Assembly (NCBI GenBank): GCA_022826665.1
Contig: JAJDUK010000005.1
Coordinates: 55,262 to 119,261 of the forward strand
Source: Alphaproteobacteria bacterium
GTDB lineage: Bacteria > Pseudomonadota > Alphaproteobacteria > UBA828
DNA length: 64,000 nucleotides
Direction: 5' to 3'
Shown here: piece by piece, positions 16,858-38,110 of the stretch
How the letters are laid out: each line of letters begins with the position of its first letter
Numbering within the stretch: position 1 is the first letter of the stretch
Position numbers and translations under genes: made by a program
The notes under the pieces: model-generated
Told to the model about the DNA's origin: nothing
Databases searched by the model: none
Seen by the model: only the letters and a program-made list of their open reading frames with translations

Positions 16858-16934
16858 TGGCGCGCCCGGCAGGACTCGAACCTGCGACCCCAAGCTTAGA
16901 AGGCTCGTGCTCTATCCGGCTGAGCTACGGGCGC
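16858..16934 (-). tRNA. tRNA-Arg (anticodon UCU)
   Basis: The reverse complement folds as a canonical cloverleaf. Acceptor GCGCCCG/CGGGCGC, D-arm GCTC/GAGC, anticodon stem CGAGC/GCTTG with loop CTTCTAA (anticodon TCT), T-arm GCAGG-TTCGAGT-CCTGC, encoded CCA. Confidence 0.85.
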
Positions 16935-17321
16935 CGACCCCGTTCCTACCACGACCGGCCGCAAATGTGATCGACCTTCCCAGCACACGGTAAGTGCCGT
17001 CCCTCGCCTAGTCAGGCCGCGCTCGCACTAGCCCACAACTCGACCTCCGCGTATCGTAACTACGCGATGGTGACGAAGGCCCCGGGCAGAGGTGAGACTG
17101 ACCGTCGCTCCCTACGTGGGCATGACTATGGAGCGCTGGGACGGGGTGGCGAGGGTGGGAATCGTAGTGAGGCGCCCTTGTGCGCCGGCGCCGAGAAGCT
17201 TACATTATTTTCTTGACAAACGGGAGAACACTCAATTGCGTGCTTGTCAGGTGTTGGATACGAGCCGAGGGTGCCCACCTGCGCGACGCAACACCGAGTG
17301 CCAGCTCAAGGGAGGCCGACC

Positions 17322-17576
17322 ATGTCGGAGCTGACCAAGGAGATCGCCGCTTACGAGCGTATGCGTAACGAGCTTGAGACCGATCATCTAGGCAAATGGG
17401 CACTCGTGCACGACGAGGTTCTGGTGGAGGTCTATGCGACGTTCGAGGAGGCAGCAGCTGAGGCTGTGCAACGATTTGGCCGTGGCCCCTACTTGATCCG
17501 CGAAATTGGCGCTGCGCCGATGACGCTTCCGGCATCTGTCCTTTATCATCCTGTGCAGGATCATGCCGTCGGTTGA
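17322..17576 (+). CDS. hypothetical small protein (84 aa)
   Basis: ATG at 17322 preceded by a GGAGG RBS. Overlaps the downstream gene by 14 nt. No recognisable motif. Confidence 0.4.
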   Translation: MSELTKEIAAYERMRNELETDHLGKWALVHDEVLVEVYATFEEAAAEAVQRFGRGPYLIREIGAAPMTLPASVLYHPVQDHAVG

Positions 17577-18015
17577 GTGTGGATTCGTCGATCCCGCAGG
17601 ATCTAGCGGTCCAAACAGCCTCATTCGATTTGGCCCCACCCTCACAGTCCAAATTGGCTTTGACACAGGATATTCTCCTGGGAGTCCTCCCAATTTGCCG
17701 TCAACAGAATTTCACGCGCTCGTTGATACAGGGGCGCTGAGTAGCTGCATTGATTCTACTGTGGCGGCGGCATTGCAATTGCCTATTGTTGACAAGCAAA
17801 AGGTAGCAGGCGTTCATGGTAGTGCAGACGTTAATGTTCACTTGGCGCAAATCTATGTACCTGCACTAGATTTGACGACGCATGGGAGATTCTCGGGAGT
17901 GCACCTTCACGCAGGTGGCCAACCTCACAGCGCTCTTATTGGACGGACTTTTCTTCGATATTTCACCATGATTTACGATGGGGGTACCGGCTCAGTTACA
18001 CTGTCCCGCTCTTAG
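17563..18015 (+). CDS. retropepsin-like aspartic protease domain protein (clan AA)
   Basis: 150-aa ORF with HALVDTGALSSCID (D-T/S-G-A aspartyl protease signature) followed by a hydrophobic flap region. Confidence 0.55.
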   Translation: MPSVECGFVDPAGSSGPNSLIRFGPTLTVQIGFDTGYSPGSPPNLPSTEFHALVDTGALSSCIDSTVAAALQLPIVDKQKVAGVHGSADVNVHLAQIYVPALDLTTHGRFSGVHLHAGGQPHSALIGRTFLRYFTMIYDGGTGSVTLSRS

Positions 18016-18147
18016 TCTCACTGCCAGATCGGCGCCTTCAATAAGTCCCCTTTTGACAAAATATCTTAAGTTTCGTTTCTGCCGACTGTTACCATCCGAA
18101 GCTTGCAGTTCCCACTGGAATCATCAAATTCTCTTGATGGTCCCTCT

Positions 18148-19374
18148 TCACGCCGCGGCTGCGCGCTCCGTGAGCCAGGCCTCGATGCGGGCGATGGATT
18201 CCTCGATCTCCTCGGTGCTCGCGGCGTAGGAGAGGCGGAGGTAGCCCTCGCCGTAGGCGCCGAAGCTGGTGCCGGCGATGGTGGCGACGCCGGCCTCCTC
18301 CAGCAGCCCGTCCTGCAGCGTGCGCGCGTCGAGACCGGTGCCGGTGATGTTGGGCATGGCGTAGAAGGCGCCGGCGGAATCGACGCAGGTGATGCCCTCG
18401 ATCCGGTTGAGCGCGGGGACGATGAGCTTCCGCCGCTCGTCGAAGGTGCGGCGCATGACGTCGACCGACTCCTGCGGGCCGGTGAGCGCCGCGAGCGCCG
18501 CGTGCTGGGTCGGCGCGTTGACGCAAGAGTTGCAGTTGATCGCGAGCCGCGTGGCGTGCGCCGCGAGCGGTGCGGGCCACACCCCGTAGCCGATGCGCCA
18601 GCCGGTCATCGCATAGGTCTTGCTCCAGCCGTCGAGCACGATCACGCGGTCGCGCAGTACCGGATAGTCCAGCATCGTGACATGCTCCCGGCCCTCATAG
18701 AGCAGGCGGCTGTATATTTCGTCGCTCATGATCGCGACGTGGGGATGGGCCTCGAGCCCTTCGGCCAGCCGGTCGAAGGTTTCGCGCGGAACCACGCCGC
18801 CGGTCGGGTTGGCGGGGCTGTTGAGCATGACGAGCCGGGTGCGGGGCGTGATCTTGGCCAGCACCTCCTCGGCATCGAAGGAGAAGCCGGTCTCCTCGTA
18901 GAGCGGGATCGGCACCGGCGTCGCGCCGGAGAACTTGATCGCGGACTCGTAGATGGGGAAGCCCGGATTGGGATAGAGGATCTCGGCCCCCGGCTCGCCG
19001 AACATCAGCGCGGCGAAGAACATTGTGACCTTGCCGCCCGGCACCACCACGACGTTGTCGGGATCGACCTCGCAGCGGCGGTACGTGGCGATGTCGGCGA
19101 CCACCGCCTCGCGCAGGGCCGGGATGCCGTTCGCCGGGGTGTAACCGTGGTGGCCGTCCGCCAGCGCTTTGCGGCCCGCCTCGACGATATGGTCGGGGGT
19201 GCGGAAATCAGGCTGGCCGATCCCGAGATTGATGATGCTGCGCCCGGCCGCCTGCAAGGCGCCCGCGCGGGCCAATACGTCGAAGGCGGTCTCGGTCCCG
19301 AGCCGCCCCATGCGCTCGGCGATCTGCACGTGCGCCTCCCTGTCCCACTCAAAGGCCGCGCATGATGCCACCAA
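18148..19374 (-). CDS. pyridoxal phosphate-dependent aminotransferase (class I/II, aspartate aminotransferase-like)
   Basis: 408-aa ORF. INLGIGQPDF, NPANPTGGV and PLP lysine block LDGWSKTYAMTGWRIGY. Precise start is uncertain. Confidence 0.8.
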   Translation of the reverse strand: MVASCAAFEWDREAHVQIAERMGRLGTETAFDVLARAGALQAAGRSIINLGIGQPDFRTPDHIVEAGRKALADGHHGYTPANGIPALREAVVADIATYRRCEVDPDNVVVVPGGKVTMFFAALMFGEPGAEILYPNPGFPIYESAIKFSGATPVPIPLYEETGFSFDAEEVLAKITPRTRLVMLNSPANPTGGVVPRETFDRLAEGLEAHPHVAIMSDEIYSRLLYEGREHVTMLDYPVLRDRVIVLDGWSKTYAMTGWRIGYGVWPAPLAAHATRLAINCNSCVNAPTQHAALAALTGPQESVDVMRRTFDERRKLIVPALNRIEGITCVDSAGAFYAMPNITGTGLDARTLQDGLLEEAGVATIAGTSFGAYGEGYLRLSYAASTEEIEESIARIEAWLTERAAAA

Positions 19375-19580
19375 AGGAGGCTGCGCGGAACCGGACCTGC
19401 GCTATCATGCGGCGCCGACAGGGAGAGAACTCCGGGCTAGCGCACATCAAGTCCTTCTGTGGCGTTTGCTGTCCTCTCCTGCCGCAGATAATATCCAACG
19501 TAATCAGTAGGATATCTCCAAACGACGATTCTTGCAGTCACCCGAAAGCTCCGCTAGTCTCATTCATAACGTGGGACAGA

Positions 19581-20753
19581 ATGTGGAACAGACACTTGGC
19601 CAAGCAGCTCACCGCCGCCTTCGTGCGCACCGTCAACACCCCGGGCAAGTACCACGACGAGCATGGGTTGATCCTGCGTGTCGTCCTCTCCCAGCGCAAG
19701 CAATGGATCTCGAAATCCTGGGTCCAGCGCCTCGTCATCCACGGCCGGCGCCGCGACCTCGGTCTCGGGGCCTATCCGCTCGTCGGGTTGGCCGATGCGC
19801 GCGAACGCGCCCTGGACAACCGCCGCATTGCCCGTTCCGGCGGAGACCCGCGCGCACGGCCCGCCGCCGCCGCGCCAACCTTCGAGGAGGCCTTCGAGGC
19901 CGTCCTCTCCGTGAAGGCCCCGGCATGGAAGAGCCCGACTTCGCAGGTTTCATGGCGCCAGACGATGCGCCTCTACGTCTTCCCGCACATCGGAAGCCGG
20001 GGCGTCGACACCCTCACCACCAGCGACATGCTCCTGGTGCTCACGCCGCTGTGGAACGATAAGCCGCCCACCGCCAAGCGGGTGCTGCAACGCATGAGTT
20101 CGGTGTGCCGGTGGGCGATCGCCGAGGGGTACCGCAACGACGACCCGACGGCGAACGTGACGAGCGTCCTGCCCAGGCACAAGGGTGAGGAGAGACACCA
20201 TGAGGCGATGCCGTACGTGCAGGTCGGCGCGTTTCTTGTACGCCTGCGAGACGCGGCGGTTCCGCTACCGCGACGGCTGGCACTGGAGTTTCTCACCCTG
20301 ACCGCGGCGCGCACGAGCGAAGTGCGGCTGATGACCTGGGACGAGGTGGACACGGACGCCCGGACATGGACGGTGCCCGCGGCGCGGATGAAGATGATGC
20401 GGGAGCATCGGGTGCCGCTCGCCGAGCGCGCGGTGGCAATTCTCGATGAAGCGCGCGGGCTTCCCCGCCACGGCTCCCGGTGGGTGTTTCCGGGCACCGG
20501 CGGCGCGGAGTTGAGTCAGATGGCGCTGCTGCGCACCATGCGCAGGCTGGACGAGGAAGCGGCCACGCCGCACGGGATGCGCTCGGCGTTTCGTGATTGG
20601 TGTGGCGAGCAGTCCGACGCACCGCACGCGGTGATCGAGGCCGCCCTTGCGCATGTGGTGCGCAACAAGGCCGAGGCCGCCTACGCGCGGTCGGACCTGT
20701 TCGAGCGGCGCCGAGTGTTGATGGAGCAATGGGCGGCGTACCTCTGTCCATGA
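19581..20753 (+). CDS. int: tyrosine-type site-specific integrase (P4/CP4-57 family)
   Basis: ATG at 19581 inside ORF 19362..20753. Catalytic region TAARTSEVRLMTWDE, HGMRSAFRDW (H-x-x-R) and C-terminal Tyr region. Confidence 0.85.
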   Translation: MWNRHLAKQLTAAFVRTVNTPGKYHDEHGLILRVVLSQRKQWISKSWVQRLVIHGRRRDLGLGAYPLVGLADARERALDNRRIARSGGDPRARPAAAAPTFEEAFEAVLSVKAPAWKSPTSQVSWRQTMRLYVFPHIGSRGVDTLTTSDMLLVLTPLWNDKPPTAKRVLQRMSSVCRWAIAEGYRNDDPTANVTSVLPRHKGEERHHEAMPYVQVGAFLVRLRDAAVPLPRRLALEFLTLTAARTSEVRLMTWDEVDTDARTWTVPAARMKMMREHRVPLAERAVAILDEARGLPRHGSRWVFPGTGGAELSQMALLRTMRRLDEEAATPHGMRSAFRDWCGEQSDAPHAVIEAALAHVVRNKAEAAYARSDLFERRRVLMEQWAAYLCP

Positions 20754-20981
20754 GATTTGCGGTGGTGATCGTCGTGGGTCGAAAATCCCGGTCCGCTGCT
20801 GGCACAGGCACGATGGGCTCGATCGGACCGCGAACGCCCTCGCATCACACCCCGCAACCGGCGCCGCTGGTCGCGCCCCGCTTGCGGGAAGCTCATGGAG
20901 GGACGCTCCAACGGACGAAGTGACCACGCGGATGTCCTCGACGAACTCGGCATCGGTACGGGCGCTCTGCACGCGCCCCGT

Positions 20982-21248
20982 TCACCTGGGTTGAATTCGC
21001 CGGCGTCCCGCTCCGTGACGCGCGGAATCGCCGCACACGCTGTCGCGCGAAGCGATCCACTCGTCGATCCCTCGTGCAAGCCACCCGACCGCGCGCGAGG
21101 TCAGCCGGATGGCGGCCGGAAAATCGCCGGCCTTGATGAGGCGGTAGATCGACGCCTTGGAAAGCCCGGTGCGTTCCATCACCGCGGGCAGGCGCAGTAC
21201 TCGCCCGTCAACGTCCACGGCGCCGTTCTCCCTGTCAGATCCGTTCAT
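20982..21248 (-). CDS. alpA: AlpA family phage/island regulatory protein (excisionase-like HTH)
   Basis: RLPAVMERTGLSKASIYRLIKAGDFPAAIRLTSRAVGWLARGIDEWIA matches the AlpA/MerR-like HTH pattern. Convergent with the integrase. Confidence 0.7.
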   Translation of the reverse strand: MNGSDRENGAVDVDGRVLRLPAVMERTGLSKASIYRLIKAGDFPAAIRLTSRAVGWLARGIDEWIASRDSVCGDSARHGAGRRRIQPR

Positions 21249-21604
21249 GCGATCTCACCGATGTCTCGATCGGGAACAAACGTTGTCGTTCGTCATGGCC
21301 GATACCTCCCGGTTACGAGGTCCCGGCAAGGCGATTCATGGCGGCTAGGGTAAGCTCGTACCGATGTGGCGGCCACAACTTCAGTTAGGGAAAATCCTGC
21401 GCTTGGCACATCGGTGCCAAGCGTGCTCTCACGTGCTCAAATTCGAACACGTGCGACCGAACTTCCCACTGATCCCCGAACTGATCGCCGCCCTCAACCG
21501 CGCCCGCGACAAGGGTACCCACGAGCGTCTGATTCGACGCCTCGCCAGGGCCATGACGCGGCAACTACGTAAACGCATCAAGACCCGGCGGACAATCCGG
21601 CCCT

Positions 21605-21877
21605 CTACGGCTTAGCCGGTTCCACGATGATGCGGCCTCGCCCTCGCCTGATCCGGTAGCCGCCGCGCGGGATCGCCAGAGTACCGTCCTGCACCATCGG
21701 CCAGAGCGTGTCGACGATCATGGCCGCGTTGCCGTCCTGCTTCCCCTTTGCCGTGTCCTGCGACGCCAGCCATTCCGCGAACGCGCGTGTCCCTACCTCG
21801 TCCCCCACCGATTTCCTGAGCGCGTTGAGTTTGCGGAGCTGCCCCTTCGTCAACGTCGACTCATCGAATTCTGTCAT
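21605..21877 (-). CDS. hypothetical protein
   Basis: Start at MTEFDESTLTKGQLRKLNALRK inside ORF 21605..21937. No motif. Confidence 0.3.
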   Translation of the reverse strand: MTEFDESTLTKGQLRKLNALRKSVGDEVGTRAFAEWLASQDTAKGKQDGNAAMIVDTLWPMVQDGTLAIPRGGYRIRRGRGRIIVEPAKP

Positions 21878-22271
21878 CGCGGTTCCTCTTCCGGCTTCTT
21901 CTGCTGAACGAATCGATGCCCCTGTAGCCGATACCAATAGCAGCGCCGCTTCCGCCGGCCCATGTCTCGTTGCCGGTATCGGCCCGGCCTTCCGCGATCC
22001 GCATCTTCAGAACATGAGACGGCCGAAACGTCACGACGCGGCGCGCCGGGATCGGCGCCGGCTCCCCGGTCTTCGGGTTGCGGCCCTCCCGTGCCCGTTT
22101 GTGGCGAACCCTGAAACTGCCGAACCCGGAGATCGTCACCGCCCCCCCCGCCGACAGCCGTTCGGCGCACCCCACGACCGCCATGTCCACGCGCGCCGCC
22201 GCAGCGCGGCGCGGCAGGCCGGTCTCGCGGTGGACGGCGTTCGCCAGATCGGCGCGCGTCACTGTCGCCAT
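21861..22271 (-). CDS. HU/IHF family DNA-binding protein (unusually long C-terminal tail)
   Basis: TRADLANAVHRETGL...GGAVTISGFGSFRVRHKRAREGRNPKTGEPAPIPARRVVTFRPS is the HU/IHF arm signature. About 40 extra C-terminal residues. Confidence 0.65.
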   Translation of the reverse strand: MATVTRADLANAVHRETGLPRRAAAARVDMAVVGCAERLSAGGAVTISGFGSFRVRHKRAREGRNPKTGEPAPIPARRVVTFRPSHVLKMRIAEGRADTGNETWAGGSGAAIGIGYRGIDSFSRRSRKRNRDDRIR

Positions 22272-22447
22272 GGCAGAACAGCACTCCGGATTTCGGTCAG
22301 CGTAGCCCCGCCACAGCTTCGGTCAAATCTCAAGACTGCTCACTTGCGAACCAGGCAACTGCGTGCAGCCCATGTCATTCGCCGGCCGGCGCGCTTCAAG
22401 GCGGAATGCGCCAGTGCGCCGTTGCGGAGCGCAGCTGACGCCTGCGG

Positions 22448-24052
22448 CTAAATCCCGATTCTCTTGCTCAGGCTCAGGTAGTTTCGACCGTCTTTGCGCC
22501 GGTATCGCAAGTCGTCGACATACGTGCGCACCAGATGCAGGCCGAGGCCGTCCACCACCGTTTCTTCCTGTATCGTGTCCGGACCCGGCTGGAACATGAG
22601 GGTATCGGGATCCAGCTCCCGGCCGTCATCCTCGAAGCGGATTGCGAGGCTGCGGGATTCCTCGTTCATCTGAAGGTGGACGTCGATCCGCTGCGTGTCG
22701 GCATCGTCATGGCCATGCTCCACCATGTACATCAGTGTCTCCTCCAAACAGAGTTGTATCTGGAACCGGTCCTGTTGCGGCAGCCCGTGCCGGTCGGCGA
22801 AACCGTCCATCGCCTTCGCGACCCGTTCCAGTTCCCCGCGGCCGTTGCGCACGACCAGGCTCAAGCCTGGGGCCGCTTCCGGGGATCCGTCCCGGCCACT
22901 CGCGGCTGTCGACGGCCCCTCGCGGTCCCCTTCCGTTCGGACACCTGGCCGCTGGGCATCGGACGGCCCGTCGGCTCGCACCAACGCGCTCAACGCCGCG
23001 ACATCGATCGCCGGTGTAGTCGACTTGGGTGGCCAGCTCCGGTCCCCGGCCTTTACGACGAGGCTTCTGACCGCTTTCCTCAAGTCGGCCACAAGAGCCA
23101 ACTGCTGCAGCGTGTCCAATGTCTGCGCATGCTCCGGCAGGCACAGGTGCCGCCAGAGCATCTGATAGGACAGGACGTCATCGCCGGCGAAGTCGAAGAT
23201 ATCCATCGGCGAGGCCGGATCTTCCGGCGAGAGCCCCGCGGCCCGGAGCAGGCAGGCGAGCGCCCCGCGGGTTATCCGGTCTTCCTCGAACCCGTCTTCC
23301 GTTCTGTGCAAGGCGCCCAACACGGCGAAGTAGCCCGAGTTCAGTGGCTGGCTGAAGCTCCACAGCGGTCGCGTGGGGTTGGTCAGGTAGCGCCGCTCGC
23401 CGCCCCGGTGAGGGCGCAGCAGGGCGGCGTTGCGGTGGGGAAAGCGGTCGAACAGAAGCAGGGTCTCGGCGTGCTCTATCGCGGCCTTGACGAACGACCA
23501 GCCGACGACCTGGTTGACCCTTCGCTGGTCGGGCGGCGCAGCGGCGATGAGGTCGGCACTCATGCGCGCCGTTTTCTCGACGCAGAGCTCTTGCAGCTTC
23601 AAGTCCTCCGCGTGACCCAGAGGAAAATACATCCATATGCGCTCGATAACGTTGTAGTGCGCAAACTCCCGATCGGTCTCGCAGGCTTGCCGGGAAATCG
23701 AAGCGGTCACGGGATCGTTCGCGTAGGCCAGAGCCGTGCCGCGATAGACGCTTCGCGGGAATTGGTCGAGGACGATCAACTTCGCCAGAATGCCCTTCGG
23801 AGTGTCCCAGACCGGGTCGCCGAAAAAACGGTCCACCCCCTCTCGGTGCATCTGCTCGCACCATTCGCGCTGAACCCGAAGATCGTTCGGATCCAGGGTG
23901 CTTCTGGTGAACGGTCCGACCCGCCACCGTCGCATCGCCTGCTGCCAGTTCTCGCGGGAAGCATCGGCCGGCGTGCGCAGGCGACCGAGCCAGAAATCCA
24001 GCACCGCCTCCGGAGAGCGCTCCGCAATACGGACATGGTCGTCAGCGCCCAT
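22448..24052 (-). CDS. DUF924 domain fused to RsbW/SpoIIAB-like anti-sigma serine kinase (HATPase_c_2-like) domain
   Basis: Start at MGADDHVRIAERSPEAVLDFWLG (frame arithmetic). N-terminal half has the DUF924 block LIVLDQFPRSVYRGTALAYANDP. C-terminal 140 aa has CLEETLMYMVEHGH, RFEDDGRELD and GLGLHLVRTYVDDL resembling N, G1 and G2 boxes. Confidence 0.55.
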   Translation of the reverse strand: MGADDHVRIAERSPEAVLDFWLGRLRTPADASRENWQQAMRRWRVGPFTRSTLDPNDLRVQREWCEQMHREGVDRFFGDPVWDTPKGILAKLIVLDQFPRSVYRGTALAYANDPVTASISRQACETDREFAHYNVIERIWMYFPLGHAEDLKLQELCVEKTARMSADLIAAAPPDQRRVNQVVGWSFVKAAIEHAETLLLFDRFPHRNAALLRPHRGGERRYLTNPTRPLWSFSQPLNSGYFAVLGALHRTEDGFEEDRITRGALACLLRAAGLSPEDPASPMDIFDFAGDDVLSYQMLWRHLCLPEHAQTLDTLQQLALVADLRKAVRSLVVKAGDRSWPPKSTTPAIDVAALSALVRADGPSDAQRPGVRTEGDREGPSTAASGRDGSPEAAPGLSLVVRNGRGELERVAKAMDGFADRHGLPQQDRFQIQLCLEETLMYMVEHGHDDADTQRIDVHLQMNEESRSLAIRFEDDGRELDPDTLMFQPGPDTIQEETVVDGLGLHLVRTYVDDLRYRRKDGRNYLSLSKRIGI

Positions 24053-24509
24053 GTCTCGATTGTCCCATCTCGCCCGACAGGCCCATCGACCGGCGCAACC
24101 TAGGGGGAAACCCGGTCGCGCCGCTATCCTCCCAAGTGGGAGGTTTCGTTCGAAAGGGGGGTCAAAAAAACTCGGCCCGAACGATGTTCCTGCGAGATTT
24201 TTCGGTGTGGCGGGGCGGCGACGGCGCGCCGGCATGGCCCAGTGCCAGCGCGGCCAGGGTCAGGTTCTCCAGCACATCGGCCGCCGCCATCGCGAGCGGC
24301 AGAAGATAGAGCGGCGCGGCGCGCCGCCACAGTCGGACCAGCAGGATCGTCAGCAGCCGGTCGTAGGCGGTCCGCCTGCTGTTCCCGACCGGCTGCTGCA
24401 AGAGCGAGATGCTGACCCTGCGCTGGTGGGGGTCGATCTCGAATTCGGCGAGCTCCATCTCGCTGCAGCCTAGACCGGCCCTCGCGCGGACCTGCTGCCA
24501 CCGACGGCG

Positions 24510-24866
24510 GTGGCGCTGTTGGAAGCGCTGCCGCGACGGATGGACAGCCCCTGGGTGTTTCCGGGCAACGACCGCTACGGGCGCTACAGCAGCGGCGGAC
24601 TCGACCATGCCTGGCGGACCGTGCGGGCAGCGGCCGGGCTGGAGCACGTGCGGATGCACGACCTCAGACACAGCTTCGCGTCCACGGCGCTCGCCCTCGG
24701 AGAAAGCCTGCCGATGATCGCCAGGCTCCTAGGCCACAGCCAGATCAAGACGACCGCCCGCTACGCCCACCTTGTGCGGCAATCGGTGAAGACCGCCGCC
24801 GACACAGTCGCGGACAGCCTCGCGGAAGACCTGGGCCCGCCCCCGGTCGCTCCGTCCACCGCCTGA
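24510..24866 (+). pseudogene. 5'-truncated tyrosine recombinase (C-terminal catalytic fragment only)
   Basis: 118-aa ORF with MHDLRHSFAS and GHSQIKTTARYAHL (R-H-R-Y catalytic region). No N-terminal core-binding domain upstream in any frame. Confidence 0.6.
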
Positions 24867-25436
24867 CCGGCGGCGCGCATTGACCGGATTGGTCTCGGGC
24901 CGCGGCATCGGCTGCTTGTCCCGGACGGCCCCGCGTCGGACACGGCTCTACATGTACGCAATACCGTCGCGCGTCAGATTGATGACCTTCTCGATGTTTC
25001 CCTCGTCAAGTTTGGAAAGGCGCGATTCCGGCATCCCCAGGGCGGCCGCCAATTCGCTCCTTCGCACGATTGTTGTTCGGCGCGCATGTTGGGCGCCGAT
25101 CGCCGTAGTAAAGCGTTGATTTGCTTCGATTCCGAGGGGTCAAACTTCGACGCCGAACAACAGTCGGCGGCCATCATTGATGCCAAATTTCCTTCGGCCT
25201 CGCCGCCGGCCGGCAAGGTCAAGGAGGCAGGGCGGCCCAATTCTTCGTCACGCCCGGAAGATGCGCCATGTCCGGTCCCAACGCGTTTGCAAGGCTCCAC
25301 GAAGCCTGAATCAGTGGAATCGAAATCACGCTGACCCCCGACGACATGGACCTGCTATTCGGCGCAAGTCCTTTTGTTCTGGGGTATTTCCTTCTATACA
25401 AACCCTCAGGCGATCTAGTCGCGAAGAGGACGTGTC

Positions 25437-25988
25437 ATGAAGCCAGCAGTGGCCGTTGTCGATTGGTATGGGCCATACACTCTTGAAGAGGCACGAACCG
25501 CCACCCCAGACTTTGGGGATGGCATCTACATGGCCACCGGAGCATGCAAGTATCAGCGCGCCGTACGGCCTCAGTATTTGGGAATAACATCAAGTCTTTC
25601 GTCAAGACTAAACGGAGACCATCATAAGTTGTCACTGGTCACTCGAGAGCAGGAACTATGGCTAGGGGAAATCGCCAGTTATAGACGGCCTGGTAGGAAG
25701 ACAAAAGCTACCGATAGAATGCTTGACTTGGCTGAATGGGCGCACATCTACTTTCTACAGCTACCCCTCAACGAGAAAAAAAGAGCACAACCTCCAGATT
25801 ATCCGATTACGGTATACAATCGGTGGTGGCGCAACGATTATGCAACTCCACATCGCCGACGTCCACATCAACGATGGCCCGACCTCATCGATTTTGTTGA
25901 CTGCGATTACCCGGCGAAAGTTGTCTGGTTTGGACGGCGTCAGGTCATAAGGCCCGTGCTTGACTTCAAGAACTCACATGTAGTTTGA
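25437..25988 (+). CDS. hypothetical protein (183 aa), first gene of low-GC island
   Basis: Clean ORF in the low-GC segment. No recognisable motif. Confidence 0.4.
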   Translation: MKPAVAVVDWYGPYTLEEARTATPDFGDGIYMATGACKYQRAVRPQYLGITSSLSSRLNGDHHKLSLVTREQELWLGEIASYRRPGRKTKATDRMLDLAEWAHIYFLQLPLNEKKRAQPPDYPITVYNRWWRNDYATPHRRRPHQRWPDLIDFVDCDYPAKVVWFGRRQVIRPVLDFKNSHVV

Positions 25989-26073
25989 AGTCCGTGCTAG
26001 GCGCACTCCACCGCCTTCAGCCGCTCTACATGCGTAGAGGAGATGATCACACATCCAGTCCAAGAACTGAGCT

Positions 26074-26583
26074 CTATGTATTCAGTACGTTCATGCCACT
26101 GGCTGTTTCCATGACCAAGGCCACATGCTCGAGAAATTTGCGTTGCGCATTGTCGGCTAAGTCCACGTGAGTTGTGTCATCACCTACCGTCATATCCACC
26201 GATCCAGTTGCGATGTCGACCTCCACCGTGCCGCCGATCGTCGGGTGTTCTTGAAGGGCCTTGCGTATTCGAATGTTAGTATCTTGCGATCGCCCGGATT
26301 TGCGAAATTGACTAAACCTGGGCCGCAACTCGACCGTTTCTCCTACATAACACTTCGTACGCCCTTCACCGTAAAGGTGGAACCTGTATAGACCGGTCTC
26401 ACGCGTAGTCTCTGGAAACGCTGGGTCGCCCTTGTCGTCCCATGTGATGCGACCGATGCGTCGCCATCGTACCTCGACCGAAAATCGTATCGACTCAATT
26501 CCCGTTACCACCATCTCAGTCGCTGTTGTTCCGATCATCGCAGTTGCTCCGTGACCTCCCATCTGTTGATGATGGCACACCAT
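26074..26583 (-). CDS. GIY-YIG-like nuclease candidate
   Basis: GLYRFHLYGEGRTKCYVGETVELRPRFSQF resembles GIY-(x10)-YVG followed by the conserved Arg-x3-F helix of GIY-YIG domains. Last gene of the dcm operon; start may be MIGTT at 26538. Confidence 0.4.
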   Translation of the reverse strand: MVCHHQQMGGHGATAMIGTTATEMVVTGIESIRFSVEVRWRRIGRITWDDKGDPAFPETTRETGLYRFHLYGEGRTKCYVGETVELRPRFSQFRKSGRSQDTNIRIRKALQEHPTIGGTVEVDIATGSVDMTVGDDTTHVDLADNAQRKFLEHVALVMETASGMNVLNT

Positions 26584-26616
26584 ACTTACGCGCCCAGCGC
26601 CAGCTCCAATACGTTC

Positions 26617-27669
26617 TCACCGCTCATCACCTTGGTCATCAAGATAGCGATGAATTGCCCGTGCATGATGCTCTGCGAACTTCGGCGGGAACGCATTTCC
26701 AATCATTTGTGCTGCTGGATATCTCCCCCGGGAAAGGTCGAATCTATAGCTTTTAGGGAAACCCTGAAGCAGAGCTGCTTCTCGCAATGTAATAGCTCTA
26801 TCTTTTTCCGGGTGTAAGAATCGCCCTTTCGAAGGATTAATGCATCCTCCAGTTATAGTCGGTGCTTCCTTCCTCCATTCCATACGACCATACACATCCC
26901 AAAATCCCTCTAACCTCTTGTGACATTCCAGCTGGTCATCAACGGGCAAGTCCGCTCTACTGCCCCCATCCTTGGGTATGCGGCAAATCAATTCGTAAAC
27001 CTTATGCGCTCGCCTCACTTTGTAATTGTGCGCTGGATCATTCGATTTCTCTGGCGCTGGCAACTTTCGTATAGCTTCAGACACTGTTCTGCGCCGTGAG
27101 GGGCAAGCAAATGGAGGCAATCCCTTAAGGCCTCCCAACAAAAGCAAGCGACGTCGCCGCTGCGGTACACCGTACCGTGCGGCATCAAAGACATCCACAC
27201 CAGTACGGTAATCTAGACAATGAAGTTCGCTCCTTAGCCGCTCCAATCTCTCGTCACTCATGAGAGCAGGTACGTTCTCCATCATAATGGCTTTCGGCCG
27301 AAATACCCTAACGAACCGAACAAACTGGAACACCAGCTCGTTTTGTGGATCGTTTGCGTCCCTCGCTCCATTCAGAGTGCGCAAGGTCGAATATCCTTGG
27401 CAAGGAGGGCAACCCGCTATGAGATCCATCTCCCCGGCTCTTATGCCAAGTACTTTCATCAGTTTTCGCGGCTTGATTGTCGTAATGTCACACTGGAACA
27501 TTCGGGTGTTTCGGTGGTTCTTACGATAGGTTGACGCAGCCAAGGGATCGTTATCGATCGCTGCCACCACGTCGAAGCCAGCTCGACGAAGACCGAGCGA
27601 CAGCCCGCCACAACCTGCAAATAGATCTACCGCTCGCCGTTCCGCCTTCTCGTATTGGAACGATCGCAT
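26617..27669 (-). CDS. DNA (cytosine-5)-methyltransferase
   Basis: All C5-MTase motifs in order: FAGCGG (I), GCPPCQGYS (IV), MENV (VI), QRRRR (VIII), IGNAFPP (X). Start codon overlaps the upstream gene stop. Confidence 0.9.
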   Translation of the reverse strand: MRSFQYEKAERRAVDLFAGCGGLSLGLRRAGFDVVAAIDNDPLAASTYRKNHRNTRMFQCDITTIKPRKLMKVLGIRAGEMDLIAGCPPCQGYSTLRTLNGARDANDPQNELVFQFVRFVRVFRPKAIMMENVPALMSDERLERLRSELHCLDYRTGVDVFDAARYGVPQRRRRLLLLGGLKGLPPFACPSRRRTVSEAIRKLPAPEKSNDPAHNYKVRRAHKVYELICRIPKDGGSRADLPVDDQLECHKRLEGFWDVYGRMEWRKEAPTITGGCINPSKGRFLHPEKDRAITLREAALLQGFPKSYRFDLSRGRYPAAQMIGNAFPPKFAEHHARAIHRYLDDQGDER

Positions 27670-29438
27670 TAATCGACCCTTCCCACAAAGTCCAAACCCA
27701 CCCGAGACAGTGAAGCCCCCAGTTTGTGCAGCAGATTCAATGCATACTCGTAGCGCAGCTGACCGACAACTCGCACTTCTTGTTCCACAAAGCTAAGATT
27801 ACCGTTCGCTGATCTCGTCGACCCTATGGTCAACATTCTTGTGCTAGCAGGGTCGAGAGAAAATAGTCCCTTATTCTTGGCGTAAACAAAGCTCAAAACG
27901 GGCTGGGCATTTCTTTGACTGGTAAACAGATATGACCTATTCTCGCGCCCGTCCAGGTTCAAGAACACACAGCGTCCTTCATTTATTTCATCTGGCCTTG
28001 GCACCGCGCGTGTATCTCTGTGCAGCTTTACCGCGATGAACGGCAGCCACTCCCCGAAGCGGTCACGACGTTCAGCTCCGCCTTGACCAGGTACCAAGTC
28101 GCAGGCCGGGCTCAAACACACCCAGTAATCATCGCCACTCTGAAAGACATGTCCAGTAGTTAAGTGACGTCCTCCGGGGGGTCTGCTGCATGCGAGTACG
28201 TTGTGCTCGATCAATGCTGTCGTTTTTTCCGATTGTTCAGTGAGATCAACCTGAAAGCGTCTATTGCACACTTGTTTGCTGTTCTCACCGTTTGAGTTTT
28301 CAAATTGCACCAGTTCATCGGCGAAGTCACTGACACTTGGGATCACCTCATCAATAAGCAGCTCTGCGTGCCATTTCACGCTTTCTGAAATGTATTGAAG
28401 GCGCACGTCACTGCTCGCGTCCAAGAGCCTGCTGTACCAATAGGCAAGTGCACGGCGTCGAGCAAGAACGTGCTCCTGAACAGGAACACCTTGTTCGTCT
28501 ACCTCCGCCCGCAACCGCGACAAAAGCAGCCGAGAAGGCGTTGGATTCCATCCCGAAAGCGCTTGACTCAGTCGTTGCAAGAGATCGTCGTGCTCTCCCT
28601 TACGAGCAAACGCTATGAAAATGGAACCACTCTGAATCCAATAAGGGTCGGATAGAGCCCACGCAAACTCTCCAACATAGTTGCTGTGCAGGCTCTCCGC
28701 CAATGCCCTTTCCCGCATGACAAGCGCGTAGATTAGCAACGTGCGACGATCATCCTCATCCAAGCCGACGTCGACGCAAAGTGCGTGAAATTCCGCAAAG
28801 GGCTGCTCCGCCGCCTCCATCGTGCCAAACACTTGACCAGGCTCTCGACGGTATTCGAGATATGCCTCCGTCCCAATGCTAGCCAAGAGCGCGTCTTCGA
28901 ACCCCTCCCGTTCGAGCTCCGCTTCATCCAACAGACGCTGGGCTGCTTCGGCGCCAGCACCGCCGCGGGTTAGGTCCTGAGATGCCGAGAGAAGACCGAT
29001 GCGTACCTGCTGAAACACTTCATCCAGCTCTAGGGATGTGTAAATGATTACCAAGTTGAAGTGCTGATTGCCGGCGACATTGCGCAAAATTTCGATTGCT
29101 CTTGAGCCGTCTTCTCGCCGAGTCCGGTCTAACTCATAGTCCAGGACTAACAAGTCCGATTGATGCAAATGCCGTGCAACCTCCCTCGCGCCCTCCTCAG
29201 GTACGTTCTGTCCGTCGTGAATATCCAGTAGGAGCGGCGTATCTCTATCCCGAAACTGCCTTATCAGCTCTCGTACCCGATCTGGCGATTCGCGCCATCT
29301 CTTTTCAACACCTTGGTCCGATTCTGGAGCAGCCAATATGTCGCTATACGTCGGATAGTCATCATCTACGATGAGAACCGAACGAATGGGATCAACATAG
29401 GCTTTTCCTATGAACGCATCGTAGGACTCACACATCAC
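27669..29438 (-). CDS. receiver-like (CheY-fold candidate) N-terminal domain protein with large uncharacterised C-terminal domain
   Basis: N-terminus IRSVLIVDDDYP...TPLLLDIHDGQ...DLLVLDYEL...NLVIIYTS resembles beta1 acidic pair, phospho-acceptor Asp and beta4/beta5 of REC domains, but is degenerate. C-terminal 430 aa has no recognisable motif. 11-nt overlap with the upstream GHKL gene. Confidence 0.5.
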   Translation of the reverse strand: MMCESYDAFIGKAYVDPIRSVLIVDDDYPTYSDILAAPESDQGVEKRWRESPDRVRELIRQFRDRDTPLLLDIHDGQNVPEEGAREVARHLHQSDLLVLDYELDRTRREDGSRAIEILRNVAGNQHFNLVIIYTSLELDEVFQQVRIGLLSASQDLTRGGAGAEAAQRLLDEAELEREGFEDALLASIGTEAYLEYRREPGQVFGTMEAAEQPFAEFHALCVDVGLDEDDRRTLLIYALVMRERALAESLHSNYVGEFAWALSDPYWIQSGSIFIAFARKGEHDDLLQRLSQALSGWNPTPSRLLLSRLRAEVDEQGVPVQEHVLARRRALAYWYSRLLDASSDVRLQYISESVKWHAELLIDEVIPSVSDFADELVQFENSNGENSKQVCNRRFQVDLTEQSEKTTALIEHNVLACSRPPGGRHLTTGHVFQSGDDYWVCLSPACDLVPGQGGAERRDRFGEWLPFIAVKLHRDTRAVPRPDEINEGRCVFLNLDGRENRSYLFTSQRNAQPVLSFVYAKNKGLFSLDPASTRMLTIGSTRSANGNLSFVEQEVRVVGQLRYEYALNLLHKLGASLSRVGLDFVGRVD

Positions 29439-32391
29439 CGAACTTTGCTCCCCGAAACGTGATCAGAAAGTTTGCTCCGTCCAAAGGCATCCTCGCCTTG
29501 TTGGCCTCGTACTTTATTCGGTGACCTCCTGCCGACAAATTCGCCCGGCATAGATACAGTCCCACTCCGCGTCCCCCTCGTGCCTTTCGTGTGAAAAACA
29601 AGGTGAAGAGGTTGCTCACATCTTCTTCATCCACTCCGGGACCATTGTCAGAAACAACCACATCATCTTCGATAACGCCAAAAATGATCCGGCGCTTTTT
29701 TACCTCAGTGCTGGCCAGCCAATAGATGCTGTTGTTCACTAAGTTGATGAACACAGGATAAAGCCGGGACTGCTGATCAAATACCTGCAAACGAAGAAAC
29801 TCATCGGTGGCCTCCAACGCAATTTGGTTTCGCGCCAAAATCGGCTTAAAGAAGTCCGAGGTATATCGAAATACGTCTTCACCTGTGATCCATTTCTGAA
29901 TCTTTTGGCCCGCTAATCGGAGAGGTGACAGGAACCGCAGCTGGTCGGTAAGCCCTTCGTATGCAAATTCGATATCCTTCGCGGCTTTGCTTTCCCGGAT
30001 ATCTCCCGGCAAACGACGCAACCCATCAGCGAGAATGTCGTCGAAGGCTTGAAGATCATGTGCGACGATTTCCACCGCTATGCCAAGCTGCGCCAAGCTA
30101 TTCAGCCTGTCCAGCTCCGCGCGCAATTCGCCCACTTCGTCCGCGTCGAACGTCGCCAAATGCAGCAGGTCTACACTTTCCCCCAAGCTCTCGAGCGTTG
30201 TTATATATGGCAGCAATATATCCCGGTTCTCTTTGTCAAACCTCTCCTTCAATTTATCCATCGCGGCGGAAGCTTCCAAATACGGCATCGCTTGCGCGCG
30301 CACTCGATCCAGCAGCGGTTCGGCTTCTCGAGTGAAAGCGTCCATCCTCTCCTTGACCAGTTCTCTGACGCGTTCGTACTCTGCGCGCTGTAATCTCTCC
30401 GCTTCCTTACCCCAATTATCCAATCGCCGTTTGAGTTCTCGGCCTTGTCGGGTCAATTGTTCAAGGAGTAAATCCTCTGGCCTTGCCGGGTCGACACGTT
30501 CGATCTGCTCTTCCAACTTTTCTCGCAACGCGGCGACCGCGGTTCGGAAAGCACGATAGTTCCGTCGATACTCGACATATTGGCTCTCCAAGCGCGCGCT
30601 CAACTTCTTCGGCTTCACCGGTAGTGTGAAGTCAGAGAGGCGCCCTACAAACGCATCGAGGTCTTCCTTTGCTGGTCCAATTTGCCTTTCTCTCGTTATA
30701 TCAAGTGATTCCACATAGCTCTCAATCTCGTGAAGGACCGCCGGTAGCTCTTCCGCAAAGTCTTTCAAATTCGCGCGAAACGCGCGCGCCTGCCTCTTGT
30801 GAAGCTTCTCGCGTTCTTTATTTGCCTTTTGACGACGATTGTCCTCCCTGATGTCCGGTAAGAAGTCTCCGCGAAAACTGGACTCGGAACCAAAGTACAA
30901 CCTAGCGGATCTCTGCAAAACATTCGCAACGATTTCCCGAAACGTTTTTGCGGCATGGTTGTCTAGAAGCCCTTCTCTCCCCGCCTTGTCCTTGAGGTTC
31001 GGATTAGTCTCGCGTCCGATTGAGAGACGCCCGAACATTTGTCTGTGATTCCAGAATTCACGACCGGCACTCTTGCTGCGGCGTGACTCGATTTCGAAAA
31101 AATCGTTATCTGTACGGCCATAGGGAAGAACACGAAGACCGTCTCGAAAAACCATGAAGCCAGAGTACTTGTTCGCGAGATCGCGATAGCGGTTGAAGTC
31201 CGCTTCGGTGTGCGTGCTGTTTATGGCGGTGAATTCCATTGACGCGATATAGAGGCCGAATGGGCCCACCCGGGTGTCCGCGCGGGTCGGAATTGTTAGA
31301 TCGCGCGGTGGCGGAATGACGCATTCGTCCGTCAGGTCTTTTCCGAAAGCTCTAATGGAGCCTGTGAATACGCCGTCTTCTCCCACCCGCCCCACAATGC
31401 GATGCTCCATGTCATCAATTTGCCGTCTGTCGAACTGTCTCTCGGAACCGACAACTAAATCCGCTGTTCCATTTGTCCAGGCGCGTACGGCATACGAAAA
31501 CTGCGGATCGCTGTTCGACAATGCCTTATCCGAGGGATCTACGAAAGGGTCCACAAAACTCGAAAGCGTCTCGAAGAAACGATCACGCGTCGCCTGTTGC
31601 GCAACCTCACTGTAGTTCCGCTCGATCTGTGCCCGTAAATCATAGTTGAGGCCGGATATCAGTAGCGCCGTACCCCTATCCGACGCATCTGTCCACACAG
31701 GCCAAGGCTCAATGTGTTCCGGTTGGAAAGGCAGCTCAAGAATGTTGGCGATAATGTCTTCGGAGCGAGCGACCTGTATTCCACTTTCCTTCAGTCCGTC
31801 AATCTCCGACCAAGCCTCGGATATTCGAGCAGATCGCCCGGGTTCTCTCCCGCCCTTAACATTTTCCGACAGAGTCTTGGCCAGTAGCGGCAATTCTACG
31901 AATAAATCAGCTCTGTCTTTGAAATCCACAAGAGGAATTTGAATGTCAGAAAGATTGAGAAAGGGATTCTCAAACAATCGCCAATCGATCAGCGCCGCGA
32001 TGAAAGGCGAATCTTTTCTCTTGGACACCAGCAGCAACAAGGGACCCAAGTTCGCACACGAAAGGCGCCCGATTCCCTTTTGGCCTTGGCGTGGCCGAGG
32101 CTTCAGGCCGTTGCGATCCGCTCGACTTCTCGGATCTGCAGTGGCCTTCGCCTCAGTGCCCACCACCAGCCAGTGTCGCTGGAATTCCTCCCCGCTCATT
32201 CCATGCCCGTCGTCCACGATCGCCGCGACAGGCTCCGGGTCCTTGAAGAGGTGGAGTTCGACCATTCTCGCGTAGGCGTCATACGCATTCTTCCAGAGCT
32301 CGGATATCGCCGTCGGGCAATCCGCGATCTGCTCCCGACCCAGGTGGTCTACGGTCCGTGCCCGAGTCTGAAATGCGATTCCTTGAACCAT
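29428..32391 (-). CDS. dual Bergerat-fold ATPase: N-terminal MORC/MutL-like GHKL domain plus C-terminal histidine-kinase transmitter (HisKA-like H-box + HATPase_c)
   Basis: N-terminal ELWKNAYDA (ExxxNxxDA), DDGHGM, GQKGIGRLS. C-terminal IVAHDLQAFDD (H-box-like), INLVNNSIYW (N box), SDNGPGV (G1), LFTLFF (F), GGRGVGLYLCR (G2). Confidence 0.65.
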   Translation of the reverse strand: MVQGIAFQTRARTVDHLGREQIADCPTAISELWKNAYDAYARMVELHLFKDPEPVAAIVDDGHGMSGEEFQRHWLVVGTEAKATADPRSRADRNGLKPRPRQGQKGIGRLSCANLGPLLLLVSKRKDSPFIAALIDWRLFENPFLNLSDIQIPLVDFKDRADLFVELPLLAKTLSENVKGGREPGRSARISEAWSEIDGLKESGIQVARSEDIIANILELPFQPEHIEPWPVWTDASDRGTALLISGLNYDLRAQIERNYSEVAQQATRDRFFETLSSFVDPFVDPSDKALSNSDPQFSYAVRAWTNGTADLVVGSERQFDRRQIDDMEHRIVGRVGEDGVFTGSIRAFGKDLTDECVIPPPRDLTIPTRADTRVGPFGLYIASMEFTAINSTHTEADFNRYRDLANKYSGFMVFRDGLRVLPYGRTDNDFFEIESRRSKSAGREFWNHRQMFGRLSIGRETNPNLKDKAGREGLLDNHAAKTFREIVANVLQRSARLYFGSESSFRGDFLPDIREDNRRQKANKEREKLHKRQARAFRANLKDFAEELPAVLHEIESYVESLDITRERQIGPAKEDLDAFVGRLSDFTLPVKPKKLSARLESQYVEYRRNYRAFRTAVAALREKLEEQIERVDPARPEDLLLEQLTRQGRELKRRLDNWGKEAERLQRAEYERVRELVKERMDAFTREAEPLLDRVRAQAMPYLEASAAMDKLKERFDKENRDILLPYITTLESLGESVDLLHLATFDADEVGELRAELDRLNSLAQLGIAVEIVAHDLQAFDDILADGLRRLPGDIRESKAAKDIEFAYEGLTDQLRFLSPLRLAGQKIQKWITGEDVFRYTSDFFKPILARNQIALEATDEFLRLQVFDQQSRLYPVFINLVNNSIYWLASTEVKKRRIIFGVIEDDVVVSDNGPGVDEEDVSNLFTLFFTRKARGGRGVGLYLCRANLSAGGHRIKYEANKARMPLDGANFLITFRGAKFGDV

Positions 32392-32738
32392 GCCCTCGTT
32401 CCGCGCCCGTCGCCGACCCGATCAGACGGCCCGCTCAATGCCGAACAGACTCCGCACCAACAGCCGAATGAGGCCGACGCCACCACATATAGCATATACT
32501 ACTAAGGATGCCCCAATATGGAGGCGAAGACCGCTCACGGTTCGACGAGCCTTGGGTTCGGCTCCCTCGACATCTCCACTGAATTCGCCCCATCCCGCCT
32601 ACGCTCCAGCCTTCCAGCCACAATTTCAGCAGCCTTGATGCCGGCCTTTTGCTTCCTAGCCTGATTCTTGCCCGTAGTGATCCTCCCCGCTCAAATCCTG
32701 CACTCCCGTGTCCGGTTAGTGCAATATGGCTTCCGCCG
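32392..32738. promoter_or_regulatory. divergent intergenic region between GHKL operon and vsr (inferred promoters)
   Basis: 347-bp non-coding gap between divergently transcribed genes. No motif resolved. Confidence 0.3.
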
Positions 32739-33203
32739 ATGACCGACACAGTCGATCGCAACACCCGTTCTCGCATGATGGCGAGTGTCTCCAGCAAGGA
32801 CACGGCGCCGGAACTCGCTCTGCGTCGGGCACTTCATGCGCTGGGCCTGAGATACCGACTCCATTGTCGGAATCTCCCCGGCACTCCCGATCTGACCTTT
32901 CCTCGCTTCCGAGCCGTCTGTTTCGTACACGGCTGCTTTTGGCACCGCCACCCCCGCTGTCACCGTACGACAGACCCCACCACACGCCCGGAATTCTGGC
33001 ACGCCAAGTTTCAGGCCAACGTGGAGCGTGACCAACGCGCACGACAGCAGCTTCTGGCCGCTGGATGGCGAGTGGCAATCATTTGGGAATGTGCGCTGCG
33101 CAAGGATCGAGCGGAACGTACATCCCACGTGGTGGCCCAATGGCTACACGGCGACGACCGCGAATTCGAAACGCCTCTCTTCGAAACCCGACACCAACAA
33201 TGA
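32739..33203 (+). CDS. vsr: very short patch repair endonuclease
   Basis: ATG at 32739 by frame arithmetic. TPELALRRALHALGLRYRL, FVHGCFWHRH and WRVAIIWECAL are canonical Vsr blocks. Confidence 0.85.
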   Translation: MTDTVDRNTRSRMMASVSSKDTAPELALRRALHALGLRYRLHCRNLPGTPDLTFPRFRAVCFVHGCFWHRHPRCHRTTDPTTRPEFWHAKFQANVERDQRARQQLLAAGWRVAIIWECALRKDRAERTSHVVAQWLHGDDREFETPLFETRHQQ

Positions 33204-33372
33204 TCTCCCTACCGTATTTTGAACCCGACACCGAGGGCATTTTTCCTCCGATTCTGCTGGCCCTCCACGCATCGCGCTGATCGCCTCGCATGCCCACTTG
33301 TTGCCGACGTCGACACCAACCGGGTGATTCGAATTGCCTTACTGCACTTGGAAGTTGTCCTGATACTTGAGT

Positions 33373-33560: not shown

Positions 33561-33566
33561 CGCACG

Positions 33567-38093: not shown

Positions 38094-38110
38094 CCCGAGA
38101 GGAGAACCCG

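Follow-up and report, generated by a model that had tools for sequence, protein, structure and literature searches.

Anti-sigma kinases such as RsbW, SpoIIAB, and UsfX belong to the HATPase_c_2 family and are placed in a scheme of kinase, STAS-domain protein, and sigma factor. Rv1364c of Mycobacterium tuberculosis, a fused RsbU-RsbW-RsbV, and SiaABCD of Pseudomonas aeruginosa keep a PP2C phosphatase and a STAS-like substrate. The DUF924 family (PF06041, COG3803) includes Atu0120 (PDB 2i6h), a canonical member of the ~180–200-aa type, and the searched literature on DUF924, PF06041, and Atu0120 offers incidental mentions only. Here, we describe a gene that joins a DUF924 domain to an RsbW-like GHKL domain in the window, a 64-kb stretch of contig JAJDUK010000005.1 (Table 1). 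In contrast to RsbW, SpoIIAB, and UsfX, the GHKL domain of the window protein sits behind a 360-aa core made of DUF924 and a helical middle domain, carries Tyr in place of the N-box Asn, is encoded without an adjacent STAS, sigma-factor, or PP2C gene, and scores far below the equivalog cut-offs. The PP2C phosphatase and STAS-like substrate of Rv1364c and SiaABCD are neither present in nor linked to the fusion, and canonical DUF924 proteins such as Atu0120 have neither the middle domain nor the C-terminal module. With moderate confidence, we interpret the fusion as a functional member of an uncharacterized family that is mobile as a single gene, and its GHKL domain as a cis-acting regulatory module derived from partner-switch kinases.

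The two end domains proposed in a preliminary description of this DNA were borne out by a Pfam scan. The N-terminal part matches DUF924 above the gathering score (6.4e-33) and has an all-alpha fold like that of Atu0120, and the C-terminal part matches HATPase_c_2 (1.1e-17; 64.7 bits against a cut-off of 27.4). The top structural matches of the latter are UsfX, Rv1364c, SpoIIAB, SiaB, and RsbW (the matches include 3ke6 and 6kko), and the domain is by profile and fold an RsbW/SpoIIAB-type GHKL domain, as the kinase-like assignment in that description had it. It does not reach the level of the RsbW and SpoIIAB equivalogs of NCBIfam (32.8 against 145, 29 against 155, and 15.3 against 135 bits). 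The AlphaFold model (predicted local distance difference test score, pLDDT, 75.6) has four parts, of which DUF924 and the middle region are helical, the linker (362–393) is disordered, and the GHKL domain (396–531) is alpha/beta. When the core of DUF924 and middle domain was modeled alone, the predicted template-modeling score (pTM) was 0.83, and in the model the middle domain packs with DUF924 as one unit. A structure search with this core gave no fold match past generic helical or TPR-like repeats. The linker varies in length and sequence across the alignment, and 27 aligned homologues favor the start codon at 24052 over an upstream ATG at 24235.

The family profile aligns with Bacillus subtilis RsbW (2e-6) and with SpoIIAB, and places Tyr442 (EETLM-Y-MVEHG) at the Mg-coordinating N-box Asn of both; the Met that had been proposed as the substitute for this Asn is not at that position. 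The window protein thus lacks the N-box Asn of an active GHKL Ser kinase, whereas the other boxes are kept as previously described, with an invariant Glu pair (E437/E438) and conserved DDG (G1) and GLGL (G2) motifs. Across ~117 family members, the N-box position is occupied by Tyr in 97, Asn in 12, and His in 4, and Asn is kept in the split-gene, Binatia, and Acidobacteria forms and in free-standing relatives. The ratio of nonsynonymous to synonymous substitution rates (dN/dS) against the closest homologue is 0.23 for the whole protein and 0.19–0.22 for each folded domain (0.19 for GHKL), compared to ~1 for the linker in more distant comparisons, which argues that the Tyr-bearing GHKL domain is maintained by selection.

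The nearest sequence relatives of the C-terminal domain are free-standing HATPase_c_2 proteins of 147 aa (40–45% identity, E ~1e-45) from similar metagenome-assembled genomes (MAGs). They differ from it in that they stand alone, have an intact N-box with its Asn (LEEMVLNVINYGF), and are linked to PP2C. In the same kinds of MAGs, a conserved operon (loci L053–L057, 4802-9928) encodes a REC-SpoIIE(PP2C) protein, the 147-aa HATPase_c_2 protein, a Peripla_BP_6 protein, and a HAMP-HisKA-HATPase_c sensor kinase; no STAS gene adjoins this partner-switching cassette. Since the nearest free-standing relatives sit in such REC-PP2C operons, the GHKL module of the fusion descends from genuine partner-switch kinases.

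The family is present in databases yet undescribed, and belongs to uncultured marine bacteria. A search of 5.8 billion proteins returned 141 relatives at E ≤ 0.001, which form at least 120 clusters at 90% identity. Nearly all (~110) of the best 120 clusters measure ~515–560 aa and carry both PF13581 and PF06041, and the other ~10 are mostly shorter or partial proteins with PF06041 alone; where the source names the protein, it is only as “DUF924 family protein.” A genomic scan restricted to one genome per species yielded 34 loci, and all 34 copies are in MAGs of several phyla. The hosts are assigned to Defluviicoccus, Rhodobacteraceae/Paracoccaceae, Rhodospirillaceae, and Thalassobaculaceae, as well as to Gammaproteobacteria, Pseudomonadales, Binatia, Ca. 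Multivorans, Acidobacteria, Thermoanaerobaculia, and Immundisolibacterales. Many of the isolate names (RHO, COS, APA, SB, and Langseth) resemble those of sponge-microbiome MAG sets. A literature search showed only that Defluviicoccus is mentioned together with sponges and symbionts in a few papers. Plasmid and phage carriage were considered and rejected, as PLSDB contained only short canonical DUF924 genes (≤41% query coverage, <35% identity), and there were no relatives of the fusion protein on viral contigs.

The middle domain is rare, with 18 representatives in 1.84 billion proteins, and in each it directly follows a DUF924 domain. What comes after it differs among these 18: GHKL, an EF-hand pair, PilZ, an unassigned region, or nothing. 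The EF-hand pair occurs on the DUF924 and middle core in P0129 (6.6e-13) and P0134, and PilZ in P0132 (1.3e-15), and these variants retain the middle-domain motifs without any kinase. The constant part of the family is a compact all-helical core of DUF924 and the rare middle domain, and the C-terminal module is interchangeable. In a split form found at two loci (L030 and L032), a 365-aa gene for DUF924 and the middle domain is preceded, at a distance of 30 bp, by a 150-aa HATPase_c_2 gene; in L035 and L028, the kinase-like and core parts are also separate and lie 0.2–4.4 kb apart. As the adjacent split genes are in permuted order relative to the fusion, it can be argued that the two parts work together.

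The genes around the family were surveyed with a Pfam scan of two genes per side of all 34 copies (121 proteins), from which 25 families were listed. The commonest are flavin-dependent oxidoreductases (9–11 members), multihaem cytochromes (4–5), and AMP-binding enzymes (5). In 10 of the 34 loci (L004, L006–L009, L011–L013, L015, and L025), a gene for an MSMEG_0569-like flavin oxidoreductase of 416–450 aa lies 19–127 bp downstream on the same strand. The enzyme is 75–81% identical across Alpha- and Gammaproteobacterial MAGs and scores 412 bits against TIGR04046, below the cut-off of 498. Four of these ten loci have one or two paralogous genes of 112–120 aa without a family match upstream of the fusion. 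Two Defluviicoccus MAGs have two paralogues each; one is solo, like the window copy, and the other is accompanied by the oxidoreductase gene.

A multihaem cytochrome gene clustered with a gene for a 490-aa protein adjoins the family gene in five loci (two Binatia, two Alphaproteobacteria, and one Gammaproteobacteria). In L030 (6531-11601) and L032 (6414-11645), there is an apparent operon of the multihaem cytochrome (659–688 aa), the 490-aa protein, the 150-aa HATPase_c_2 protein, and the 365-aa core protein, and the split parts point the same way as the cytochrome and 490-aa genes. The same two genes also flank the fused gene in the Binatia loci L022 and L024. With its signal-peptide-like N-terminus and C-terminal Phe, the 490-aa protein is possibly an outer-membrane barrel, and the L030/L032 operon may encode a porin-cytochrome-like redox module under the control of the split pair.

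Horizontal movement between uncultured bacteria at the scale of a single gene is well supported, in agreement with the preliminary description. A block of 1.73 kb, the gene with short flanks, is the only DNA common by blastn to the window and the locus of the closest homologue (L037/L038, with L005 in the same context), which is flanked by tRNA-Pro and LppC at one end and by glycosyltransferase genes at the other. In all the other loci as well, similarity is confined to the open reading frame (ORF) of the fusion. The window copy and a gammaproteobacterial copy show a synonymous divergence (dS) of just 0.56. Mobile-element genes occur within 10 kb of a minority of the copies, namely a P4-type integrase, an AlpA gene, and IS630-type transposases in L007, IS21 and DDE transposases in L039/L040, and recombinase genes or fragments in L004, L015, and L033. 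Two truncated copies are probably pseudogenes left by transfer events. The one in an Immundisolibacterales MAG (L033, 9012-10975) covers residues 1–221 at 76% identity and abuts a tyrosine recombinase gene, and the other, in an alphaproteobacterial MAG (L036, 10007-10651), covers residues 23–237.

In the probable history of the fusion, a partner-switch kinase gene was recruited next to the core gene and then fused to it, and the Mg-binding Asn was later lost in the clade whose members became widespread among Alpha- and Gammaproteobacteria. The GHKL domain would provide the DUF924 core with a cis-acting input, regulatory or partner-binding, and would be equivalent in role to the Ca-binding EF-hand or the cyclic di-GMP-binding PilZ of the sister architectures. 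A regulatory input of this kind is suggested by the constant core with its interchangeable signaling domains and by the split-gene forms. Because the core carries EF-hand or PilZ instead in some relatives, the GHKL domain would be one of several interchangeable inputs rather than a sigma switch with DUF924 as its sensor. Given the Asn-to-Tyr change in the N-box, the GHKL domain of the window clade would most likely work by binding and not by Mg-ATP-dependent phosphorylation. The neighbors in other clades hint that the output of the core may be linked to redox metabolism.

Several points weigh against this interpretation. The redox neighbors come from other clades and are absent from the window, whose copy is a solo paralogue, and the EF-hand and PilZ relatives are few and ~28–30% identical in the middle domain. 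The proposed cis-regulation draws on domain-swap and gene-fusion logic. As the Glu, G1, and G2 boxes are intact, Tyr may not abolish nucleotide binding, and the domain may have kinase activity on an unlinked substrate. The DUF924 core may also be a scaffold without an activity of its own, as it resembles only generic helical or TPR-like repeats.

An unlikely alternative is that the fusion is a true partner-switching anti-sigma kinase, in which DUF924 and the middle domain would serve as the sensor, and the GHKL domain would phosphorylate an unlinked STAS protein (e.g., the one encoded at 7833-8177) and sequester an unlinked sigma factor. In favor of this reading, the nearest folds and profiles are those of UsfX, SpoIIAB, RsbW, and SiaB, the closest free-standing GHKL relatives are in PP2C operons, and purifying selection acts on the domain, in which the Glu, G1, and G2 boxes are all conserved. 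The STAS antagonist-like gene noted in the preliminary description as unlinked does exist, on the minus strand and 14 kb away, and in L032 a homologue of this gene lies 2.7 kb from the split pair. However, an iterative HMMER search of the 34 loci, for which the window STAS protein, SpoIIAA, and RsbV served as queries, found a STAS ORF within 10 kb in only 2, roughly the number estimated for chance. No sigma-70-family gene (queried with SigB and RpoE) was found within 10 kb of any of the 34 copies or in the 64-kb window, a PP2C gene is near the fusion gene in one context only (L003/L039), and STAS, sigma-70, and SpoIIE/PP2C are not among the 25 neighbor families listed. The family is thus linked neither to STAS genes nor to sigma-factor or PP2C genes as a partner-switching module would be, and the suggestion that such fusions might lie next to STAS or sigma-factor genes elsewhere found no support. 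Moreover, the N-box Asn is Tyr in the window copy and most of the family, the same core bears EF-hand or PilZ in place of GHKL in relatives, and the RsbW/SpoIIAB equivalog scores are far under the cut-offs (33 against 145 bits). Taken together, these observations speak against the partner-switching-type regulator that had been proposed.

It is still less probable that the kinase is fused to its own substrate, so that the GHKL domain would phosphorylate Ser or Thr residues of the core and switch it on or off, as in Rv1364c. The candidate sites would be in WSF[ST]QP (residues 231–236) and WPPxS (residues 340–344), the two most conserved motifs of the middle domain, which include Ser/Thr and fall in loops that are modeled with low confidence and probably flexible. 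In addition, where kinase and core are encoded by separate genes, these are adjacent and the N-box is intact. On the other hand, the window clade has lost the Mg-binding Asn with the motifs still conserved, and the EF-hand and PilZ variants keep the motifs without a kinase.

Table 1. Features of the fusion gene and its surroundings, in positions of the 64-kb window.
Feature	Position	Strand	Remarks
Fusion gene	22448-24052	-	534 aa: DUF924, helical middle domain, disordered linker, RsbW-like GHKL domain
DUF924 domain	23378-24025	-	Residues ~10–225; all-alpha
Helical middle domain	22973-23377	-	Residues 226–360; invariant motifs RPLWSFxQP and WPPxS
Low-complexity linker	22871-22972	-	Residues 361–394; pLDDT <50
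RsbW/SpoIIAB-like GHKL domain	22451-22870	-	Residues 395–534; Tyr442 at N-box Asn position
Single-gene shared block	22354-24083	-	1.73 kb; ORF with 31 bp upstream and 94 bp downstream; 93% nucleotide identity
P4-type tyrosine integrase	19581-20753	+	390 aa, intact; three Pfam domains above cut-offs
AlpA-family regulator/excisionase-like helix-turn-helix protein	20982-21248	-	88 aa; PF05930
90-aa ORF	21605-21877	-	Between IHF-like gene and alpA; gene call in two public assemblies
IHF-alpha-like DNA-bending protein	21861-22271	-	136 aa with 44-aa C-terminal tail; PF00216
Left junction of variable region	19431-19580	.	Homology to relatives' aminotransferase locus (L051/L052) ends at ~19438-19440 (blastn and alignment)
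tRNA-Arg	16858-16934	-	Only tRNA gene; 2.5 kb from integrase junction, 3' end pointing away
Low-GC insertion	16980-18147		1.17 kb between aminotransferase stop codon and tRNA-Arg (34 bp apart in close relatives)
5'-truncated tyrosine recombinase	24510-24866	+	C-terminal 118 aa; XerC/D-like; divergent from fusion gene
Low-GC block	~25-33 kb		GC 0.50–0.55; Dcm, Response_reg_2, HATPase_c_3, and Vsr genes
Dcm cytosine methylase	26617-27669	-	Strong PADLOC match, the only one of the cluster
Response_reg_2 (PF19192) protein	27669-29438	-	588 aa; no PADLOC match
HATPase_c_3/HEF_HK protein	29428-32391	-	987 aa; weak match to a type II restriction-enzyme model (1e-8)
Vsr mismatch endonuclease	32649-33203	+	In low-GC cluster
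Second integrase remnant	~33382-33555	-	58-aa C-terminal piece; 60% identical to intact integrase
STAS gene	7833-8177	-	PF01740 6e-20; single-domain, beside a carboxyltransferase gene; only STAS gene in window, 14 kb away

The gene content at 19581-24052 was checked by ORF listing and profile scans (Pfam and NCBIfam), and the same gene calls are found in two further public assemblies from the same sample. The preliminary description placed its genes correctly, including an intact P4-family integrase converging on an AlpA-like gene and an HU/IHF-like gene with an extended tail, but did not mention the 90-aa ORF between the last two. The integrase has the arm-binding N-terminal, SAM-like central, and catalytic domains of the P4 type (Arm-DNA-bind_3 3e-15, Phage_int_M 6e-23, and Phage_integrase 9e-17), and its translation shows the R..K..HxxR..H..Y residues (AARTSE, K..EHRVPL, HGMRSAFR, LAH, and AAYAR). 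No relatives with >45% identity were found in a scan of JGI metagenomes. The AlpA assignment is equally clear (PF05930 1.6e-18; 66.8 bits against a cut-off of 21). The 90-aa ORF, which overlaps the IHF-like stop codon by 17 nt, has no match in Pfam, NCBIfam, or PADLOC.

The IHF-like protein is a member of the HU/IHF superfamily (PF00216 1.3e-24; 86.7 against 22.4 bits). Its match spans only residues 4–92, and residues 93–136 are accordingly a real extra tail. The top NCBIfam model is IHF-alpha (himA), yet the scores are under the equivalog cut-offs (106.1 against 111 and 99.4 against 120 bits) and the length of 136 aa exceeds the expected ~100 aa. The protein is 54% identical by alignment to the core IhfA of a relative (L037), and its gene is an extra paralogue of core IhfA. 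When 17,171 nt of the window were aligned with a further assembly from this sample (L001), all 9 nucleotide differences fall inside 63 nt (~22142-22204) of the IHF-like gene, where they alter 8 residues; 6 of the 9 are A in L001 and non-A in the window. A diversity-generating retroelement was rejected as the source of this patch, as there is no template repeat in the window and a 16-nt match at 16099 does not extend. Gene conversion from core ihfA was rejected as well, as the core sequence of the relative resembles neither variant there. The patch may reflect strain variation, an assembly chimera, or local hypermutation.

These genes are part of a larger variable region. In two relatives (L051 and L052), whose aminotransferase is 93–95% identical to that of the window, glnB (P-II) and glnA lie directly upstream of the aminotransferase gene and a tRNA-Arg lies 34 bp downstream. 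The window matches these loci only at 18148-19438 and 16858-16979, and since the match stops there, the integrase region starts at ~19440 in the former spacer between glnB and the aminotransferase gene. Neither glnB nor glnA is found anywhere in the 64-kb window. The supposed islet is the left arm of a mosaic of ~17 kb (~19440-36300) that splits this spacer. The truncated recombinase beyond the fusion gene matches Phage_integrase (1.7e-14) at profile positions 92–168 only, its missing N-terminal part would overlap the fusion gene, and it marks an older integration event. The second remnant is directly downstream of a patatin-like gene (33567-34319, minus strand), which is followed rightwards by a SEC-C/TPR gene, and a core-like guanine-plus-cytosine (GC) content resumes at ~36.3 kb. 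The two remnants point to repeated integrations at the locus. Just past the variable region, 37993-40431 (plus strand) encodes an 812-aa protein with DUF2201_N (a putative metallopeptidase) and VWA-like DUF2201 domains.

The window integrase resembles those of P4/CP4-57-type integrase–AlpA islands in its three P4-type domains and its paired AlpA gene. Unlike in those islands, it lies within an intergenic spacer and not by a tRNA 3' end, it lacks flanking direct repeats, and remnants of two other integrases come after it. The junction (19330-19600) and 20800-37000 have no repeat of ≥11 nt in common, and direct-repeat searches (seed 10–11 nt) among the integrase-side junction, tRNA-Arg, and the rest of 16–37 kb gave matches of chance length only. 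With neither attL/attR repeats nor a suitable tRNA 3' end, and with glnB-glnA as the far flank absent from the window, the genes cannot be delimited as the 4.5-kb excisable islet first envisaged, also because they belong to the larger mosaic. The region is the left arm of a composite, integrase-associated variable region in a Defluviicoccus-like alphaproteobacterial MAG, and is probably no longer excisable; as a mosaic integration hotspot, it is an ordinary integration site.

An integron cassette was considered for the fusion gene, as the truncated recombinase points away from a gene array that runs in one direction and the block common to different contexts is a single gene. It was rejected, as the recombinase fragment scores better on XerC/D-type models than on integron integrase, and visual inspection of the 94 bp after the stop codon showed no attC-like R''/R' motifs. 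Left of the aminotransferase gene, the low-GC insertion contains two overlapping small ORFs, one without a family match (17244-17576) and one for a retropepsin-like aspartyl protease (17563-18015; PF13975 5e-7). Homology to L051/L052 ends exactly at the 3' end of tRNA-Arg (16858), beyond which ABC-transporter genes follow in the relatives and unrelated ORFs in the window. This break has the classic signature of a tRNA-targeted island, which would lie left of 16858 in one of the genomes.

On the other side of the fusion gene, the cluster at 26617-33203 (GC ~0.50–0.55) looks like a restriction-modification-like defense island of the methylase, GHKL-ATPase, and receiver type. The fusion could accordingly be thought of as an accessory defense or host-interaction factor carried as island cargo, since it lies 2.5 kb from the Dcm, Response_reg_2, HATPase_c_3, and Vsr genes and occurs only in uncultured bacteria of several phyla, in symbiont MAGs, with signs of recent transfer. 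This is improbable, however, as neither the fusion protein nor the IHF-like protein nor the small ORFs matched a PADLOC model, the family is absent from viral contigs and PLSDB plasmids, and its members are mostly found among metabolic genes, often in an apparent operon with the flavin oxidoreductase. A decaying pseudokinase remnant without a role, as the lost N-box Asn and the truncated copies L033 and L036 might suggest, is most improbable and already disfavored by the intact ORF, by a dN/dS of 0.23 overall and 0.19 for GHKL next to a neutral linker, and by a Tyr conserved across 97 sequences, unlike random decay.

DUF924 (COG3803) is widespread and has no known function, and the fusion gene is the one notable cargo of an otherwise ordinary region. 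In a broader and rather tentative view, DUF924 and the middle domain may form a signal-controlled output module gated by an attached GHKL (pseudo)kinase, EF-hand pair, or PilZ domain, with GHKL as a new non-sigma, non-STAS use of the RsbW fold, and this module may have spread as a single gene through uncultured, probably sponge-associated bacteria of several phyla, originally together with redox genes. If this is true, the family would provide the first functional handle on DUF924/COG3803. The joining of one core to three signaling modules, together with its occurrence in split adjacent genes, provides a concrete means of testing the role of the core and its control. The family also places an RsbW-type domain outside the kinase–STAS–sigma scheme, where the conserved change from Asn to Tyr asks whether this fold can serve as a pure binding switch.

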